From contig CALHIP010000012.1 in assembly GCA_938030745.1 (NCBI GenBank), forward strand, positions 1-45,690: DNA of 45,690 nucleotides, written 5' to 3'. Origin of the DNA: an uncultured Patescibacteria group bacterium (GTDB lineage Bacteria > Patescibacteriota > Patescibacteriia > UBA2591 > CALHIP01). The notes below the pieces were generated by a model, which saw only the letters and a list, made by a program, of their open reading frames with translations, was not told the origin of the DNA and did no database searches. Position numbers and translations under genes: made by a program. This document shows, piece by piece, positions 1-37,941 of the stretch. Numbering within the stretch: position 1 is the stretch's first letter; each line of letters starts with the position of its first letter.

Positions 1-399
1 ATCTCTTTCAGCAAAAACAATTATTCTTGAATTTTCTGGCATTTTCATTTCAAAAATATCTTGGTCATCAAAATCAATTAATTGTAAAGAGTTATAATTA
101 GATAAATGTTTTAATTGATTAAGCAAAGGGCTGGAAATATCTCTTTTAATTTCCAAAAAGATCCATTTACTTTCTTTAAGGGCATTAATGATTTTTCTAA
201 TTATATCTTCATCAATGGCCGATTGGTCATAAACAATCCTTTCAATATCAAGTTTGTTTTTTAATTCTTCAAAGATTATTTCTGGCTTTGCTTTACTATT
301 TGGTTCTTTAACAATTAAACCTAAATCAAAGAGGTTTTTCGGTACTCTTTTGACCTTTTTAAGAAGTTGAATAAATGTTTGTAATTCTTCTTTGCCCAT
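1..399 (-). CDS. Hypothetical protein, runs off the window edge; possibly a degenerate AAA_5/MoxR-like domain
   Basis: Manual translation from ATG at 399 gives MGKEELQTFIQLLKK...IINALKESKWIFLEI...MKMPENSRIIVFAERD, open to position 1. Not in the ORF track because its stop lies outside the window. Confidence 0.7.
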   Translation of the reverse strand, partial: MGKEELQTFIQLLKKVKRVPKNLFDLGLIVKEPNSKAKPEIIFEELKNKLDIERIVYDQSAIDEDIIRKIINALKESKWIFLEIKRDISSPLLNQLKHLSNYNSLQLIDFDDQDIFEMKMPENSRIIVFAERD

Positions 400-451
400 A
401 ATTATTTAAAGTTTACCATAAAATTTAGTTTTAGTCAATACCTATTTTTAT

Positions 452-2845
452 TTAATACTTTCCTGGATGTTTAATCATATCTTCTAATAATTCAGCTAAG
501 GCTTCGGCAAAATCTTTTTTGCCTTGGCGACGTTCTTCTTCAGTGACTTTTATTTTTGGAAGAGAAAAAGCCGCTTTATAGAAATCTTTTACAAATTCTG
601 TGTCGGGTCCTAATCCTATCCCGAATAATCTTACTTTCTTTTCTTTTGTAATTTTGTTTAAAACTTTTTTGAGACTTTTTGAATCATCTGGTTTTCCATC
701 AGTTAAAGTAATAAGGAAATTGTCCTTGCCTAAATTCTTGAGGAAACTTTTATAAGTTTCATTTGTTGCTTCAGTCGTATTTGTACCTCCGCCACCCCAA
801 GATTTCATTGCCGCCAGCCTATCTCTTACTTTTTTGTTTAATTTTTCTTTCCATCTTTTAAAAGTTTTTACCGAGTCACTAAAGCCAATAATCTCATATT
901 GAATTCCTAATTTTTCTAATACTTCAGCCAATACTACCAATCCTTTAAATGTTTCTTCTATTTTTTCTCCTTTCATTGAACCTGAAAGGTCAACTAAAAT
1001 AGAAAATCGATAATCAAACTTGTGGGGAATGGTTTTTCTTTCCCAGATTTTTCCCAAATATCTTTTATCAGCTTCAGCCTGCATTGCCATTTCTAAATCA
1101 ACTCTTGAACCAGTTGGATAACCCTTTTTCCATTTGGGATGGCGTTCTGGTAAGAAAAATCGCTTGAGCCGAATATAAAGAGAATTAATAATATCAGCCA
1201 CTTCTTCATAAGTTTTATCATATTCAGTCATTTTTTCTTTACGCATTTGTTCTAATTTTTTTTCTAATTCTTTTCTCTCTTTCTCTGTTTTTTCCCTCTC
1301 TTCCTCTGCTTTTTTTTCTTTTTCTTCTCTTTCTCTTCTTTCTTTATGACTTTCAGGTTTATCTTCGTTTAATTTTCCTTCCATTGCTTTATTAACTGCG
1401 TCTTCAAAATCTTCAAGTGTTTCTTGAGCTTTTTCTTTTAACTCTTCTTGTTTTTTTCTTGGTAATTTTTTAAAGAGTTTATCCAGTTCCTGTTTTGTTT
1501 TATCAGATAATTTATCTTCTGGGTAAGGCATTTCTTCACCTGATTCTATTTGCTCTAATGAATCTTGGATATTTTTGAGTTCTTCTTCGGCTTGCTTTTG
1601 CTTCATTTCTTGAGACAGTTTTTCTGCTTTCTTTTCTTGAAGTTGCTTTTCTAATTCTTCTTTTTCTTTGCCGCTGGCTTTTTCTGTTTTTTCTTCTAAT
1701 TCTTTGATTTCTTTCTCTAATTCTTCTTGTCTTTGTCTTGCCCCTTCAATTTGTTTTTCCTTTTCTTCAATCTCTTGATTTAATCTTTCAATTGCTTCTC
1801 TGATTGCTTTATCAATTTGTTCCTGAAGTTCTTTTCTAACATCTTCTGGCAATCCGTTAAATGGATCTAATTCTTTTTCTAAACCTTCAATTTCTTTTTG
1901 AAGTTCTTCTTCTCTTTTTTGGTCTCCTTGATCTCTAGCTTGTTTCAATTCTTCTCTTTTTTGTTCTATTTCTTTTTGTTTTTGCCTAAACTCTTTCATC
2001 ATCTGTCTTTGTTCTTCAGTATGCAAATCCATTTCTACCAATTTTTTCACTTCTGGCCAGATATAATCATGGTATTGTTTAAAGCATTTTTGAGCTATTT
2101 CTATCACCTCTTTTTCTTCAAGACTCCTGTCGGTCGGCGGGATATTGTTTTGATACTCAATAGCGTCTTTTTGGACCCTTTGCAAAAATTTGTGTATTTC
2201 CGGTTTTAGATTTTTGCTGTACACTCCCTTATGCCAAAGACGCACAAGTTCGGAGGCGGCTTCGGCATAACGAGGATATCGACCCAATTTAGAAATTATC
2301 AAATTAACCTCCGGCGCAATAAACTGAGCGTTTTCTTCCTTTAATTGTTCATCATAAAGTTCTTTATTTAATTCGATAAGGGCGGGGAATTTTCGCGTAT
2401 CCCAGTTGTTTACCCTCGGATCTTCCAAACCGATATTTCTGAAAGAATGAAATCCTATATATTCCGACGAGGAAAGTTTTTTGACCTGCTCTTTTGATAA
2501 GCCTATTTCGTGTTCCCCCCTAGTAATCGCCCGATGGCTTCCTTCGTGTGCCGCAATTCTTTTCGCCTTTCGCGGATTTTCTTTTACAAATAAAGGATTA
2601 AAAGTAATACTTCTTTCTGCTACATTTTCAAAAGCAACATAAGGAATTTTTTCTTCCTGGCCGGTTAAAGGATTTATCTCTTTAAGATACGGGGGGCCCT
2701 GTTCAACTTTCATTCCAAAATCACCACCCACTCTTTTGGCAATAATTTCCAAGATTTCCCATTCTTCTTTTGGGATTTCAATTTTTACCTCTTCTTCAGG
2801 CTTTTTGACTTCTTGACTATGAATTTTTTCAAATTCTTCTGACAT
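452..2845 (-). CDS. VWA-domain protein with N-terminal HExxH metallopeptidase-like domain and long coiled coil (CobT/NorD-like architecture)
   Basis: 797 aa. AAHEGSH plus downstream LEDPRVN; E/K/Q-rich central coiled coil; C-terminal MIDAS motifs LVDLSGSM, GGGTNT, ITLTDG. Confidence 0.85.
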   Translation of the reverse strand: MSEEFEKIHSQEVKKPEEEVKIEIPKEEWEILEIIAKRVGGDFGMKVEQGPPYLKEINPLTGQEEKIPYVAFENVAERSITFNPLFVKENPRKAKRIAAHEGSHRAITRGEHEIGLSKEQVKKLSSSEYIGFHSFRNIGLEDPRVNNWDTRKFPALIELNKELYDEQLKEENAQFIAPEVNLIISKLGRYPRYAEAASELVRLWHKGVYSKNLKPEIHKFLQRVQKDAIEYQNNIPPTDRSLEEKEVIEIAQKCFKQYHDYIWPEVKKLVEMDLHTEEQRQMMKEFRQKQKEIEQKREELKQARDQGDQKREEELQKEIEGLEKELDPFNGLPEDVRKELQEQIDKAIREAIERLNQEIEEKEKQIEGARQRQEELEKEIKELEEKTEKASGKEKEELEKQLQEKKAEKLSQEMKQKQAEEELKNIQDSLEQIESGEEMPYPEDKLSDKTKQELDKLFKKLPRKKQEELKEKAQETLEDFEDAVNKAMEGKLNEDKPESHKERREREEKEKKAEEEREKTEKERKELEKKLEQMRKEKMTEYDKTYEEVADIINSLYIRLKRFFLPERHPKWKKGYPTGSRVDLEMAMQAEADKRYLGKIWERKTIPHKFDYRFSILVDLSGSMKGEKIEETFKGLVVLAEVLEKLGIQYEIIGFSDSVKTFKRWKEKLNKKVRDRLAAMKSWGGGGTNTTEATNETYKSFLKNLGKDNFLITLTDGKPDDSKSLKKVLNKITKEKKVRLFGIGLGPDTEFVKDFYKAAFSLPKIKVTEEERRQGKKDFAEALAELLEDMIKHPGKY

Positions 2846-2851
2846 AATTAT

Positions 2852-2860
2852 ATTATAGCA
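2852..2860 (-). promoter_or_regulatory. Extended -10 promoter (TGCTATAAT), probably leaderless
   Basis: Plus-strand attatagca; the -10 hexamer is separated by 6 nt from the ATG at 2845. Confidence 0.6.
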
Positions 2861-3257
2861 ATATGTTTAGAAAAAGGAACTGATATATCTTAAGTTATAC
2901 TATTCAGGATTTGTCAAAGGCTGCAAAAGGTTGTTTGTTAAATAAATGAAGTAAAATTCAATAATATTAATTTTAGCCTGATTTTTGGAAAAATAGAATT
3001 GGAAATAAAGGTGATTTCCATTTTTATTTTTATACTCCTGATCATTTTTAACCTTCCGCGTTTTTGTCCGCTAAAAATGAATTGTCTGAGCAACAGACCG
3101 CCGCGAATGGCGAGCAGGCTTCAATGTTTGGCGCCGATAAAGAAAAATTAATTTCTCTTAAAAATAGTGAGTTTGAAGCGAATAATGCTGCTGTCTATCC
3201 TGAATAAAATCCGAACTTTTTTCCACGAAAATCCCGACGCTGAATTTTGATAATTTT

Positions 3258-3320
3258 CGCTCGGGCGGGCAAAAGAGAAGAGGTTGGGGGGAAGGAATTT
3301 TTACCCGCCATCGCTTTCGC
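3258..3320 (+). repeat. Left arm of GC-rich imperfect inverted repeat
   Basis: cgctcgggcgggcaaaagagaagaggttggggggaaggaatttttacccgccatcgctttcgc, similar to the reverse complement of 4761-4823. Contains an internal stem ggcgggcaaaa/ttttacccgcc. Confidence 0.8.
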
Positions 3321-3360
3321 CGCCGAATTTCGTGCTAACGAAGTTGGTGCGCCATATCTG

Positions 3361-4470
3361 TTATTTTAATCCATTTCCAAAATTTATTCCAACAAAAATT
3401 TTTAATTTATAGCCGAGTGAAACATGCTTTTTCAAAACACTAACATCGGCTTTTAGCTTTTCGTACTTTGTATTCAGATTATTGCCAGCGACACGGATTT
3501 TTTCTTCATACTGCTTAATTGTGTTAAAAAGACTTTCGTTGTAATGATTTAGATTTTGAACGAAATTGTTAAATTGTTTTAGCTCATTTTCAGTTTGACG
3601 AACCGTTTGCTCAAATTCGTCTATATATCCTACCTGATGAAAAGTTGATATTTTGTGTCCGTCTTCTTGGGACATTTTACGGTTTAAATTTTTATCAACA
3701 TATTGAAGATATTTTTGGAAGTAGACCATCATTTTTTTATTCTTTTTCAATTTTTTAGTCAATTCTTTAATCTCGCTGATTAGTTTTTCCTTTGCTTGTT
3801 TATACCTGTTTAGTATTTCCTGAATTTTATTAAAAGCAAAATTAAAATTTTCGTCCGACAAATATCCATAAGTAGTAGTTTCGATTGTAGTTGTCGTCAT
3901 ATTAGATAAAAACCCGTAATCGGTTGAACTATTTGTTTTAATAACTTTCCTTCCGTTTTTTATGACATTGGAAAACCCCAACATCATAGCCGTAATGTCT
4001 GTATAAATTTCGTTATCTTTTTCTTTATGCCAAAGTGAGTGCAAAACAATATGCGAAAGCTCATGAGCCATTACGGCTATAAAGGTCGCTGGATTATCTG
4101 CGCAATCTTCACTAACCCTTACACTTATCGGAAAATTATTTAACCCAGAAGTGCCATACATTGGCAAATATCCAGGTATAGAAACTTGAGCGATTATACC
4201 TTCGCTTCCCCTTCCTCTCCAATCGGTCTTTACCAGATGTGTGCTATGAAAGGCATTCGTATTGCCGGGGTGATAACCCTTCGGCACATACGAAAGATTT
4301 ATTTCTATTGGTAACTTCAAATATTTAGCAATTTCTTTTATGCCTTCCTTAACTTTTCCTTGGCGAATAAGAGATATTATTTTTTGATCGTCTACATTAT
4401 CTTTAATGCCGATCAAATCAGAGAGTGTTTTAATGGCTTCTTCTATGTAATCTTTGCTTATGTTTTCCAT
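3361..4470 (-). CDS. Hypothetical HExxH zinc-metallopeptidase-like protein with C-terminal coiled coil
   Basis: 369 aa. VMAHELSHIVL followed by DNEIYTDITAMMLGF and YGYL; helical C-terminal third. Confidence 0.75.
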   Translation of the reverse strand: MENISKDYIEEAIKTLSDLIGIKDNVDDQKIISLIRQGKVKEGIKEIAKYLKLPIEINLSYVPKGYHPGNTNAFHSTHLVKTDWRGRGSEGIIAQVSIPGYLPMYGTSGLNNFPISVRVSEDCADNPATFIAVMAHELSHIVLHSLWHKEKDNEIYTDITAMMLGFSNVIKNGRKVIKTNSSTDYGFLSNMTTTTIETTTYGYLSDENFNFAFNKIQEILNRYKQAKEKLISEIKELTKKLKKNKKMMVYFQKYLQYVDKNLNRKMSQEDGHKISTFHQVGYIDEFEQTVRQTENELKQFNNFVQNLNHYNESLFNTIKQYEEKIRVAGNNLNTKYEKLKADVSVLKKHVSLGYKLKIFVGINFGNGLK

Positions 4471-4477
4471 AAAAGTT

Positions 4478-4683
4478 TTATTTCAATAATTCATCAGCCG
4501 AAACTCCAAGAGCTTCAGCTAATTTTTGAATTGTCGCAAGGGTTGGATTTTTTTCCCGTTTTCAATTCCGCTAATATAAGCTCGGTGAACTTCTAATTTG
4601 CGAGATATTGCGCCTTGCAACAATTTTTTAACGGTTCTTATCCGCTTTAAGTTTTTGCCGAGTTTTGTTGATATTTCCGCTGA
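4478..4683 (-). pseudogene. XRE-family helix-turn-helix regulator, frameshifted and lacking a clear start codon
   Basis: AEISTKLGKNLKRIR...LEVHRAYISGIENGKK, then after a -1 shift at the A7 run (T7 at 4548-4554) NPTLATIQKLAEALGVSADELLK*, a canonical XRE C-terminus. Stop at 4478-4480. Confidence 0.85.
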
Positions 4684-4760
4684 ACAAAGGGAGTAAAATT
4701 GTTGGGTGTGTACGGATGGGTGGGGCAAACACAACCCCATATTTTTCCGCGGAGCATTTC

Positions 4761-4823
4761 GCAAAGCGAGGGTGGGGGTGGAAAGTTCTTTTTCCCAAAC
4801 CCCTTTTCCTTCCCGCCCGAGCG
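4761..4823 (-). repeat. Right arm of GC-rich imperfect inverted repeat
   Basis: Reverse complement reads cgctcgggcgggaaggaaaaggggtttgggaaaaagaactttccacccccaccctcgctttgc; the first 12 nt are identical to 3258-3269. Confidence 0.8.
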
Positions 4824-4849
4824 AGGTAGGAAACCAAAACTTTATAAAT

Positions 4850-4923
4850 TGGCTGCGGGGCTTGGACTCGAACCAAGATAAGAAGCTCCAAAGGCTTCTG
4901 TCCTACCATTAGACGACCCCGCA
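4850..4923 (-). tRNA. tRNA-Gln(TTG) with encoded CCA
   Basis: TGCGGGG/CCCCGCA acceptor stem, anticodon arm GAAGC-CT TTG GA-GCTTC, GGTTCGAGTCC T arm, 3' GCCA. Confidence 0.97.
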
Positions 4924-4962
4924 ATTTCTATCTAATAATGATAACAAATTTTTGTAATTTTT

Positions 4963-5862
4963 TCAAGAAAAAATGGTTAAAATAAAAAGACCAAGACAGA
5001 TTGAAAAAATACCGAAGATTTTTTGAATAATAACTCTCTTTTCTAACTCCTCTTTAAAAAGATAAGGAAATTTAAAAGAAATTAATAAACTTAAAATAAA
5101 AACAAAAACATATTGGATACCAATTAAAGCATTAATTAAAGCAACGTTGCCTAAAGAAATAGCTGAATTTAAAAGAAAAAAAGCAATAGCTGAAAATCCT
5201 TGATTTGATAGGAAAAGAAAAGAAATTTTTTTTTCAGTTTTTTTCAAAGAATTTAAAATAATTTTTCTTGATTGATTAAAAATTAAAAATCCTAAAGCGA
5301 AAAGGAAACTTCCTAGTCTTATCCAAATAAATCCATTAATAAATGATAATTGCTGATAAACAACCTTAGTTAAAATAAAAAAGAGACTAAAGAGAAAAGA
5401 ACATAAAACAATTAAGGGCCAGTCTTTGATAAAAAATTTTTTCTTTTTTTCTTTAATGACAGTCATTAAAAATCCACCAGAAAGAAGAAAGAAAATAGCA
5501 ATGAGAATTAAAGGAGAAAATTTTTCTTTTAAAATAAGATAACTTAAAGGGATGGAAAAAACAGAAGTAAAACTACCAATTAGAGGAATAACTCGAGAAG
5601 CTTCATTGATTTTTAAGGAAGAAAAAAATAATAAGAGAGCAGCAACAGATAATCCACCAGTAAAGAAAGAAATTATTAAATAATTAAATGATGGTAAGAC
5701 AAAATTGTCAGCAAAAATAAGAAGTAGAGAAAAAATACTAAGAATACTAATATAGAAGGTATAAACAATTGGTTGTGGAATTTTTTTTGAGACTAAAAAT
5801 TTATCAATTAAGACAACGACAGCGCTAAAAAAATAAGAGAGAATAGTAAGAATAAGCCACAT
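4963..5862 (-). CDS. EamA/DMT family transporter
   Basis: 299 aa, about 10 hydrophobic segments in two repeats; EASRVIPL and ILKEKFS motifs. Confidence 0.85.
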   Translation of the reverse strand: MWLILTILSYFFSAVVVLIDKFLVSKKIPQPIVYTFYISILSIFSLLLIFADNFVLPSFNYLIISFFTGGLSVAALLLFFSSLKINEASRVIPLIGSFTSVFSIPLSYLILKEKFSPLILIAIFFLLSGGFLMTVIKEKKKKFFIKDWPLIVLCSFLFSLFFILTKVVYQQLSFINGFIWIRLGSFLFALGFLIFNQSRKIILNSLKKTEKKISFLFLSNQGFSAIAFFLLNSAISLGNVALINALIGIQYVFVFILSLLISFKFPYLFKEELEKRVIIQKIFGIFSICLGLFILTIFS

Positions 5863-36891: not shown

Positions 36892-37941
36892 TTAAATAAA
36901 TAGTTTTTCAATCAGAAAGATCATTAAGCCAAAAGCAGCTGAAAGGCCACCAATCAACCAAAAACGCATCACAATTTTTGGTTCTTCTAATCCTTTTGCT
37001 TCAAAATGATGATGGAGTGGTGTAGAAAGAAAAATTTTGCGATGGAAAATTTTTTTAGAAATAATTTGAATAATAACTGAGAGAGATTCTATCACAAATG
37101 GAAAACAAATAATTGGTAATAAAATAACAGTGTTTGTCAGCATCGCCATCACTCCTAAGGTTACACCCAATCCCATTGCTCCTGTATCTCCCATAAAAAA
37201 TTTTGCCGGATAGATATTGTGCCACAAAAAAGCAATTAAAGCACCAACAATTACACCAGAAAAAGCAGCTAAATTTGTTTTTCCTTGAAGAAAAGCAATA
37301 ACTCCATAACTGACAAAAGCAATTAGTAAAAGCCCGCCAGCCAAACCATCAAGGCCATCAGTTTCATTAACAGAAAAAGCAGTAGCAACAATAACAAAAA
37401 TAAAAAGTGGAACATACCACCAACCAATTTCAAAATCACCAAGAAAAGGAATATGAATGATACTCCATTCTAATTTCCAGAAAAACCACCAGGCACCGAT
37501 AATCGCAATTAAAGTATAAAGAATTAAACGTTCGCGAATTTTAAGACCACCTCTACCTAATTCACCTTTTCTAATATCGACTAAATCATCAATTAAACCA
37601 ATGATAGCTGAACCAATTAAAACGCCTAAAGGTAAAAATGTTTCTTTTCGGACCAAAAAATTTAAAATTTTAAAAATCTCATGGCCAGTAATTTGCCAAA
37701 GAAAAAAAATAGCTAAAATTAAAAAAAGAGTTGTCAACCAAACAAGTAAACCACCCATTGTTGGTGTTCCCTCTTTTTTCTTATGAATTTGAGTATAAAT
37801 AGGAGTAGTTCCATTATTTCTGATTTTTTTACCTAATTTATATTTATAAAGAAAACGAACTAAAAATGGCAACCAACTAATAGCTAAAAGAAAAGAAATA
37901 ATAGTAAGAAAAATAATTTTGATGATAGCAAGCAGTTCCAT
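36892..37941 (-). CDS. mraY: Phospho-N-acetylmuramoyl-pentapeptide transferase
   Basis: KEGTPTMGG, IDD, NETDGLDGL, FMGDTG, PLHHHFE. Confidence 0.97.
   Translation of the reverse strand: MELLAIIKIIFLTIISFLLAISWLPFLVRFLYKYKLGKKIRNNGTTPIYTQIHKKKEGTPTMGGLLVWLTTLFLILAIFFLWQITGHEIFKILNFLVRKETFLPLGVLIGSAIIGLIDDLVDIRKGELGRGGLKIRERLILYTLIAIIGAWWFFWKLEWSIIHIPFLGDFEIGWWYVPLFIFVIVATAFSVNETDGLDGLAGGLLLIAFVSYGVIAFLQGKTNLAAFSGVIVGALIAFLWHNIYPAKFFMGDTGAMGLGVTLGVMAMLTNTVILLPIICFPFVIESLSVIIQIISKKIFHRKIFLSTPLHHHFEAKGLEEPKIVMRFWLIGGLSAAFGLMIFLIEKLFI

Follow-up and report, generated by a model that had tools for sequence, protein, structure and literature searches.

We conclude that positions 3184-4923 of the window (the whole 45,690-nt stretch of DNA analyzed here) very probably hold a small integrative island that has decayed and lacks a recombinase, and that belongs to a family widespread in Patescibacteria. 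The two GC-rich repeats in this region are the core hairpins of a mobile island's two arms, which flank a cargo gene and a broken regulator next to a tRNA gene. The features are as follows.

3052-3204, plus strand: short open frame, somewhat G+C-richer, outside the left arm (ORF list)
About 3184-3253, plus strand: outer module of the left arm (module A); relatives match the window at 3184-3251 (alignment)
3254-3360, plus strand: left arm, far (alpha) type (model R1, 95.6 bits, E 4e-21; alignments)
3258-3320, plus strand: core hairpin, within the left arm
About 3334-3352, plus strand: second hairpin, within the left arm
3361-4470, minus strand: intact cargo gene, 369 aa (ORF list)
4480-4701, minus strand: XRE-family helix-turn-helix pseudogene (three-frame translations; Pfam HTH_3, E 6e-5, for the first part)
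4712-4827, minus strand: right arm, XRE-side (beta) type, degenerate (model R1, 61.3 bits, E 1.2e-12)
4761-4823, minus strand: core hairpin of the right arm, then remnants of the beta hairpin and of a third hairpin
4824-4849, minus strand: 26-nt spacer from the tRNA 3' end to the right arm (sequence; comparison with other arms)
4850-4923, minus strand: tRNA-Gln, anticodon UUG, CCA end encoded (ARAGORN; Rfam tRNA, 61.4 bits)
4966-4938, minus strand: promoter-like site just upstream of tRNA-Gln (promoter-like site scan)

The preliminary description of this DNA had pointed to two similar inverted repeats that share an exact outer 12-mer, and the pair stands well above controls. The 12-mer, CGCTCGGGCGGG, lies at 3258-3269 on the plus strand and at 4812-4823 on the minus strand, with no third site in the window and no further occurrence across the whole 760,600-base assembly; the chance expectation is 0.01, and two matches were found in 0 of 100 shuffles. 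Exact identity between the arms extends over 13 nt (3257-3269 versus 4824-4812). When 3258-3320 is aligned globally with the reverse complement of 4761-4823, 49 of 66 columns match (74%) with a score of 73, compared with a best score of 35 among 6,449 other 63-nt windows of the stretch and a top score of 42 in 2,000 shuffles of the right arm. The compositional contrast described earlier is also real (59% G+C in each arm versus 29.3% for the window). The repeats are inverted as described, but their length of about 60 bp was an underestimate, as the covariance model finds the homologous arms to be longer.

Arms of this family recur in other genomes. Model R1 places them in 29 of the 55 genomes of the same order (1 to 6 matches apiece), whereas the covariance model and 12-mer search gave no additional copy within the window's own 35-contig assembly. 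A pattern scan returned at least 120 stretches; among the matches listed, 76 carry the family loop and 36 share one identical 56-mer, in metagenome-assembled genomes labeled as many different Patescibacteria lineages. The phage and plasmid collections INPHARED and PLSDB contained no arm match. Five IMG/VR matches were attributed to chance, as their contigs have 65-71% G+C and lack the family loop. Literature searches returned no description of, and no published name for, such islands with a large serine recombinase (LSR) and paired inverted arms.

The layout of the family was surveyed in 89 loci holding 107 cores. All 18 loci with two cores have them facing inward (18/18), at spacings of 1,172-4,541 nt, the same orientation as in the window. 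In 12 of these 18 loci, an XRE ORF adjoins one arm in the sense direction. Across the survey, a same-strand XRE start lies within 600 nt of 29 of the 107 cores, and the other 78 have no XRE within that distance. By regex type, the 29 XRE-adjacent arms comprise 23 beta, 1 alpha, and 5 other, counts confined to this set because the split is unreliable outside it. Full arms measure 170-440 nt and partly copy the 3' end of the recombinase gene. Module A, which in full elements comes after that copy, is conserved among relatives, in some ahead of a different hairpin, and is absent from the window's right arm.

Two further points raised in the preliminary description, an exchangeable cassette and possible enrichment next to tRNA genes, are borne out. 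The same arm family brackets unrelated genes, which in 10 pairs annotated with Pfam include McrBC, a Tsp45I restriction-modification pair, an Eco57I-like methylase, a serpin, HisRS paralogues, and an Ltp lipoprotein, and the window's own cargo recurs at other arms and tRNAs. Of the 107 cores, 13 have a tRNA gene no more than 400 nt away on their outer side, where about 2.2 are expected, compared with 1 on the inner side. In the window, tRNA-Gln lies outside the right arm, at a distance of 26 nt and in the same orientation as the arm.

A complete member consists of an LSR gene, an arm at the start of that gene, an XRE gene with its own promoter, variable cargo, and a second, inverted arm. The arm at the LSR start is itself composed of a copy of the LSR 3' end, the outer module, the core hairpin with its G-rich loop, and further hairpins. 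This layout is documented in only about 10 loci because many loci are short or end at an arm. At least 7 of the 107 cores have, within 900 nt on their outer side, a divergent LSR ORF that is 250 aa or longer, a lower bound since 28 cores sit 150 nt or less from the locus end; most cores surveyed have no LSR in the available flanking DNA. Eight LSR-like fragments adjoin cores in 7 loci, and in L081 the outer flank repeats the end of that locus's own LSR gene. In all four loci examined (L071, L081, L092, and L097), the 3' end of the LSR gene overlaps a tRNA gene on the opposite strand.

The recombinase domains are ordered Resolvase, Recombinase, Zn_ribbon_recom, as in phage-type large serine integrases and the enzymes of SCC cassettes (phiC31, Bxb1, and CcrAB). 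Those systems integrate site specifically at a short site, and their att sites are about 40-50 bp. The LSR would insert the circular element at the 3' end of the tRNA. In the circle, the far arm would come after the LSR gene and form the attP side, and the XRE-side arm would be a mirrored second copy of the far arm. We infer this assignment of attachment sites from a few loci compared by eye, and the suggested origin of the mirrored arm and any role of the core hairpin are likewise inferences. We know of no mirrored second attP-side copy beside the integrase gene in phage-type or SCC systems. Long, near-identical arms common to many elements could permit cargo to be swapped or flipped by recombination.

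The preliminary description had also offered comparisons with integron attC sites and MITEs. It is extremely improbable that the arms are the terminal inverted repeats of a derivative of a DDE-type transposon (a MITE or mobile insertion cassette) or attC sites. Inverted terminal repeats around passenger genes with no transposase inside, together with hairpin potential in the arms, are what invited the comparison. However, the flanks of the shared 13-mer differ, inspection by eye of the flanks of 10 pairs revealed no target duplication, and the sole transposase-like gene in the cargo of the 10 pairs annotated with Pfam is a nested rve-family gene in L117, so there is no constant transposase, and the neighbor that does recur, where one is present, is an LSR; the arms, at 170-440 nt, are also long and are adjoined by fragments resembling LSR 3' ends. 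The attC comparison fails on orientation, as all 18 pairs are inverted, unlike integron cassettes, which are direct, and on the enzyme, as the linked recombinase is of the serine rather than the tyrosine type.

The hairpins are conserved in the family. The self-pairing of the left arm noted earlier (ggcgggcaaaa/ttttacccgcc) is present and is the conserved stem of the arm family, and the loop of the arm hairpin is nearly invariant in sequence. The folding energy of the single sequences is not exceptional relative to shuffles (for the two arms, each on both strands, z was -0.14, -0.52, 0.07, and -0.39); the case for structure is made by covariation among relatives. Compensatory changes were found at 11 of 22 pairs in 14 sequences. 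In 113 distinct sequences, in an alignment that had been fitted to the model's own structure, 97.7% of cells were paired and double changes occurred at 19 of the 22 pairs, compared with 5-12 pairs in a slid-partner control. The earlier suggestion of a structured element is upheld by hairpins maintained through compensatory changes.

It is possible, though we do not favor it, that the arms are chiefly structured RNA, serving as the XRE operon leader, as a small RNA, or as a 3'-untranslated element in the recombinase transcript. Pairing around cargo would then reflect where the RNAs are needed, and this explanation is compatible with that of an island. The compensatory changes and the near-invariant loop are consistent with it, as is the second hairpin, in which G-U cells far exceed A-C cells (91 versus 7) when the G-rich strand is read, which has the same sense as the downstream XRE gene; however, the 91 G-U cells stem largely from a single column, and the core hairpin, with about as many G-U as A-C cells (22 versus 20), gives no strand signal. 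The fitting of the 113-sequence alignment to the model structure weakens the covariation as evidence for RNA. A search of 2500-5500 with Rfam 15, at E up to 10, matched only the tRNA and neither arm. Moreover, intact copies have the AT-rich promoter region of the XRE gene downstream of the arm, the far arm runs antisense into the cargo end, and promoter-like sites in the region are not in excess (6 versus 7.1 in shuffles).

Returning to the integrative island, the window's cassette is itself mobile between sites. Two metagenome contigs (L180 and L181) match window positions 4680-3379 at 90.6% nucleotide identity over 1,303 nt, and these and L182 have both arms, the XRE-side one complete, and encode an intact XRE protein of 68 aa. 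The contigs of L181 and L182 end within an LSR gene fragment just outside the XRE-side arm. Other relatives, at 81-91% identity, follow tRNA-Gly (L185/186), tRNA-Pro (L187/L203), and tRNA-Lys (L183/184), and the cassette always has the orientation of the tRNA; the members of L180-182, L185/186, and L183/184 are kin or near-identical contigs and not independent. Losses in these copies and in the window are nested and start at the tRNA end, with junctions at tRNA-Gly, -Gln, -Pro, and -Lys that cut successively deeper.

The window copy is a relic: no LSR was found, the right arm is truncated, the XRE gene is broken, and the arms are only 74% alike. Relative to L180, the right arm lacks the outer module, the short GC-rich hairpin that many copies carry ahead of the core, and 4 nt of the 5' stem, and about 40 nt are deleted from its interior, between two copies of a short direct repeat. 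The window also lacks some 66 nt found in L180, and so the XRE gene has neither a start codon (in alignment with the intact 68-aa XRE of L180) nor its own promoter; it is also frameshifted by the loss of 1 nt in a run of seven A residues at 4548-4554, where relatives in runs X2 and X3 have one extra base at 4550. The window copy is probably stuck and no longer mobile. The cargo gene alone is undamaged, and its transcription may now come from read-through from the tRNA-Gln promoter.

In the window's assembly (35 contigs), neither tblastn with two LSRs nor the profiles PF00239 and PF07508 recovered a serine recombinase, although an LSR copy might have been lost in assembly. As no LSR lies beside the arm, we class the window copy as a recombinase-less derivative and not as a complete member. 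Nor does the window contain a recognizable LSR remnant or a repeat of the tRNA-Gln 3' end that could mark a far border; with up to 2 mismatches, the sole other 14-mer match lies at 37330. Lacking these marks, the left limit of the island is undefined. The 26-nt spacer at 4824-4849 occupies the place of the outer module or the recombinase gene in relatives, and by eye it may be a remnant of a recombinase tail. The open frame at 3052-3204, considered as such a remnant, gave no significant match to a profile of 9 full-length recombinases (E 0.86). A same-genus genome (G001) has this tRNA-Gln but neither an encoded CCA nor the cassette, on a contig that stops about 670 nt beyond the tRNA; neither it nor a second genome of the genus (G002) has DNA in common with window positions 1-2900.

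The arms could alternatively be inverted sites of a reversible switch, in which the LSR or homologous recombination flips the cassette and alters expression. We consider this distinctly unlikely. It is true that the recombinase is located beyond the inverted pair, an arrangement shared with some invertase systems, that the two core stem variants have opposite positions relative to the cargo in the window and in L180, and that both orientations relative to the LSR occur in the family, in at least 8 loci versus 1 (XRE adjoins the LSR-side arm in L011, L081, L097, L118, L155, L156, L159, and L181/182 and the far arm in L148). However, where both arms are alike, inversion would alter nothing locally, and in the window the arms are 74% identical with a longest shared run of 13 bases, in an assembly in which no recombinase was found. 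The sole X1 contig that spans 2985-4882 has the orientation of the window, and Logan contigs, which miss rare forms, contain no supported inversion or circle joint; a joint of 3388 to 5068 was judged too short, with only 21 letters on one side.

A more elaborate explanation, which we hold only tentatively and think rather unlikely in its full form, is that the paired arms constitute a platform for cassettes based on a serine recombinase, analogous to the integron on a different enzyme. One arm would be the island's mirrored copy of the attachment side, and the recombinase, or recombination between near-identical arms of different islands, would invert, delete, or exchange the regulator together with its cargo. 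That reaction would depend on the invariant hairpin, with its G-rich loop, as a cis-acting site in the form of cruciform DNA or RNA, and the nested losses at tRNA ends would be footprints of recombination activity rather than random decay.

Several described systems resemble the integrative islands in part. As far as the text available for the Dehalococcoides ssrA islands goes, they carry a CcrB-like serine integrase, DsiB, and have a 20-bp direct ssrA repeat at their borders (PMC3146451). The Patescibacteria units are like them in being small, in having a serine recombinase of about 540 aa beside a site at the 3' end of a small-RNA gene, and in separating a conserved integration module from variable cargo, with some members that are no longer mobile (McMurdie et al. 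2011, PMC3146451). They differ in their long inverted hairpin arms, their many target tRNAs, and their much smaller size (1.2-4.5 kb between arms); the window has no direct repeat of the tRNA end, and the text of that paper nowhere uses the phrase "inverted repeat" (PMC3146451).

Tycheposons of Prochlorococcus, described in the passages available as having a tyrosine recombinase in 910 of 937 cases and in many cases replication genes, are similar in that cargo elements at tRNA genes remodel tRNA-side islands in streamlined genomes without classical mobile elements, and a minority carry a large serine recombinase (Hackl et al., bioRxiv 10.1101/2020.12.28.424599). Those passages do not mention paired inverted arms or a mirrored attachment region (10.1101/2020.12.28.424599). 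Restriction-modification (RM) units can likewise lie between long inverted repeats, and one with an integrase homologue sat integrated in a tRNA gene, according to the portions consulted of Furuta, Abe and Kobayashi 2010 (PMC2853133). In those portions the repeats are diverse and locus specific, whereas a single conserved arm family spans the Patescibacteria radiation, and some RM units have short target duplications, none of which was seen for 10 pairs of Patescibacteria arms inspected by eye (PMC2853133).

Patescibacteria have tiny genomes in which few mobile elements have been described. The arm family apparently marks one of the main vehicles that move accessory and defense genes between distant lineages of the group; one 56-mer recurs in metagenome-assembled genomes labeled as many different candidate phyla, and one cassette is found at five tRNAs. 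Searching for the arms is a simple way to locate islands and their cargo, and the arms also help to explain contig breaks in such assemblies. New site-specific integrases might be sought among the recombinases, each of which seems to be adapted to a tRNA end. The result for the window itself is modest, a fossil copy that illustrates how an island decays while its cargo gene is retained.

That cargo gene encodes a protein of 369 aa with an HELSH (HExxH) motif at residues 136-140 and a C-terminal coiled coil. Neither Pfam nor NCBIfam has a family above the cutoff, with M48 as the best peptidase match (E 0.064), and PADLOC gives weak matches, mainly to the coiled coil. There are 354 homologues, all unnamed or annotated as hypothetical apart from a few automatic labels, and residues H136, E137, and H140 are invariant in 20 of the 20 that were aligned.

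We conclude that the two GC-rich inverted repeats of the window are the arms of a fossil member of a widespread, apparently undescribed family of island cassettes, which is associated with large serine recombinases (LSRs) and located beside tRNA genes. The idea of an exchangeable cassette, put forward in the preliminary description, holds; the attC-like and MITE-like identities offered along with it do not. Full-text literature searches turned up no account of islands of this kind in Patescibacteria and no match for "Patescibacteria" with "large serine recombinase." The closest systems, going by the parts of the papers that present them, are the islands at ssrA in Dehalococcoides, which have a CcrB-like serine integrase (PMC3146451), tycheposons (bioRxiv 10.1101/2020.12.28.424599), and restriction-modification units between long inverted repeats (PMC2853133).

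The shared outer 12-mer and the similarity of the arms, from which the preliminary description started, are real. The 12-mer CGCTCGGGCGGG occurs at 3258-3269 (plus strand) and 4812-4823 (minus strand), with no third copy in the window (0.01 expected) and none in the remainder of the 760,600-base assembly (35 contigs, 29.8% G+C). The aligned 63-nt arms are identical in 49 of 66 columns and score 73, compared to a maximum of 35 among 6,449 control windows and 42 among 2,000 shuffles. The left arm was also said to fold on itself; each arm can indeed fold, yet not better than shuffled sequence, so arm structure is not arguable from the window alone. A 1,898-nt contig from sequencing run X1, covering 2985-4882, departs from the window sequence at 8 positions, all in the left arm and the conserved module outside it (3174-3354). 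Either the sample holds two arm variants, or arm copies were mixed in one of the two assemblies. The genes around the arms all lie on the minus strand, and the features are as follows.

4850-4923, minus strand: tRNA-Gln, adjoining the right arm across a 26-nt spacer
Between the right arm and the cargo gene, minus strand: XRE-type helix-turn-helix frame, with no start codon and a frameshift at a seven-A run
3361-4470, minus strand: intact cargo gene for a 369-aa protein with an HExxH motif and a coiled coil
Beyond the 369-aa gene, antisense to the genes: left arm
About 3184-3253: conserved outer module of the left arm, outside it

Farther left are the gene for a 797-aa protein (452-2845, minus strand) that combines a long, acidic coiled coil with a von Willebrand A domain at the C terminus (VWA E value, 6.6e-15) and then, at the contig start, a partial open reading frame (ORF; 1-399, minus strand). 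The variable region may reach left of the cassette, as neither stretch has a DNA match in the same-genus genomes. The island's far border is unmarked: the tRNA end is not repeated, and no recombinase remnant reached significance.

A DNA search with 3184-3354 returned many matches among 61 related genomes; a genome often holds several, and they frequently lie at contig ends or form inverted pairs. Fourteen aligned copies reveal a core hairpin, whose G-rich loop hardly varies, plus a second hairpin; compensatory changes occur at 11 of the 22 predicted pairs, among them those that give the inner stem two alternative versions. Further copies and covariation, both proposed for checking, were found: a covariance model recovered one to six copies in each of 29 of the 55 genomes of the order, and none in either of the two same-genus genomes (98% and 94% complete). 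Across 113 distinct copies, in an alignment that had been fitted to the structure of this model, 97.7% of cells are paired and double changes occur at 19 of 22 pairs, versus 5 to 12 in slid controls. G-U and A-C are about equal in the core (22 to 20); in the second hairpin G-U outnumbers A-C by 91 to 7, but mainly from one column. A pattern scan, run on a single genome from each species, matched at least 120 stretches; among the matches listed, 76 have the family loop, 44 are chance matches from high-G+C genomes, and 36 share an identical 56-mer, and the record titles name many Patescibacteria lineages and a few MAGs labelled otherwise. The hairpin arms have no match in Rfam, collections of phages, plasmids, and viral contigs yielded no member of the family, and promoter-like sites are not enriched around the arms.

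The outer module also precedes a different hairpin, near position 2404 of locus L014 and as an inverted pair in L012 (2321-2600 and 8800-9074), where it encloses 6.5 kb and adjoins a 511-aa serine recombinase; outer module and core are therefore separable parts. The core inner stem and loop are flipped within a normally oriented outer stem in L185 and L186 (about 5111-5261, the arm distant from XRE) and L128 (about 1007-1066), placing the C-rich version on the sense strand of the arm. The arrangement resembles a trace left by recombination inside the stem of the hairpin itself.

The layout was surveyed in 89 loci with 107 cores. All 18 two-core loci have their cores facing inward, spaced 1,172 to 4,541 nt apart, which bears out the paired inverted orientation. 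In these loci, an XRE ORF adjoins one arm in sense orientation in 12, lies elsewhere inside in 2, and was not found in 4. Same-strand XRE starts lie within 600 nt of 29 of the 107 cores, and the second hairpin of these XRE-adjacent arms is the "beta" version in 23, "alpha" in 1, and variant or deleted in 5. The suggested cargo diversity is also apparent, with content that varies by locus and includes McrBC, a Tsp45I restriction-modification pair, an Eco57I-like methylase, serpin, HisRS paralogues, Ltp lipoprotein, and several unknowns. Inspection of the flanks of 10 pairs disclosed no target duplication. In L117, an rve-family (IS-type) transposase gene (3026-4141) is nested within the cassette, beside the Tsp45I pair; thus, other mobile elements can land in cassettes.

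In some loci, the gene directly outside one arm, directed away from it, encodes Resolvase, Recombinase, and Zn_ribbon_recom domains and is therefore an LSR gene. Such ORFs of at least 250 aa lie within 900 nt of at least 7 of 107 cores, a lower bound because 28 cores are 150 nt or less from the end of their locus; in addition, eight LSR-like fragments adjoin cores in seven loci. In all four loci examined, the 3' end of the LSR gene overlaps an opposite-strand tRNA gene, and several LSR C termini are encoded by the antisense of a tRNA T-arm. In L081, the outer flank of an arm repeats the end of the locus's own recombinase gene. Arms are also enriched next to tRNAs, a point that had been proposed for testing: 13 of 107 cores have a tRNA gene no more than 400 nt away on their outer side, versus about 2.2 expected from the tRNA density of the window's genome, and 1 has one on its inner side. 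The arm adjoining the recombinase may duplicate, as a spare and in mirrored form, the attachment-side region of the element, a reading from sequence comparison that fits the LSR, tRNA, and layout observations. Searches of the window's assembly detected no serine recombinase.

The window's cargo protein has 354 homologues, chiefly on short contigs; H136, E137, and H140 are invariant in all 20 that were aligned. Among 39 metagenome loci encoding a cargo relative, 6 have arms; a tRNA gene is present in 7 and invariably lies upstream, on the cargo strand. Over 1,303 nt, L180 and L181 are 90.6% identical to window 4680-3379. In L180 to L182, the XRE-side arm is complete, the 68-aa XRE is intact and has its AT-rich promoter region, and an extra ORF and a far arm are present; L181 and L182 also terminate in a recombinase gene fragment. 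The extra ORF, small and between cargo gene and far arm (L180 1769-2200), is not present in the window. L185/186 have the order tRNA-Gly, 38 nt, arm, XRE, cargo, arm; in L187/L203, tRNA-Pro is fused to the final ~50 nt of XRE, followed by cargo; in L183/184, which lack arms, tRNA-Lys lies 14 nt ahead of the cargo start codon. (L180 to L182, L185/186, and L183/184 are near-identical contigs, and members of each group are not independent.) Together with the window, these loci place one cassette behind four tRNAs (Gln, Gly, Pro, and Lys), and across these contexts its loss deepens progressively from the tRNA side. In L198, a cargo relative of 55% identity follows a fifth, tRNA-Val. Runs X2 to X4, from three other studies, yielded contigs with cargo at about 90 to 94% identity, and the arms are present there at very high summed depth.

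The lesions of the window copy were read by comparison with L180, whose cassette is intact. The tRNA-side arm of the window is missing the outer module and 4 nt of the 5' stem, carries many substitutions, and has a deletion of ~40 nt flanked by the two copies of a short direct repeat. XRE is missing ~66 nt comprising the promoter region and ATG, and the A run at 4548-4554 is one base short, the extra base being present in relatives from X2 and X3. In a second relative (G011:C100), XRE is likewise broken, by an in-frame stop.

The CCA end of tRNA-Gln (4850-4852) is encoded in the window and in the same-family genome G003, where the gene is also adjoined by an arm relic, and not in the cassette-free same-genus locus L006 (G001:C14). 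This pattern agrees with a crossover at the extreme 3' end of tRNA-Gln. In G003 (L024, contig C41, about 2440-2560), a short palindrome, almost perfect, comes after tRNA-Gln: the tRNA end makes up one half, and the other continues into the outer module and then a core that has collapsed. The stretch is the relic of a solo arm at that same tRNA.
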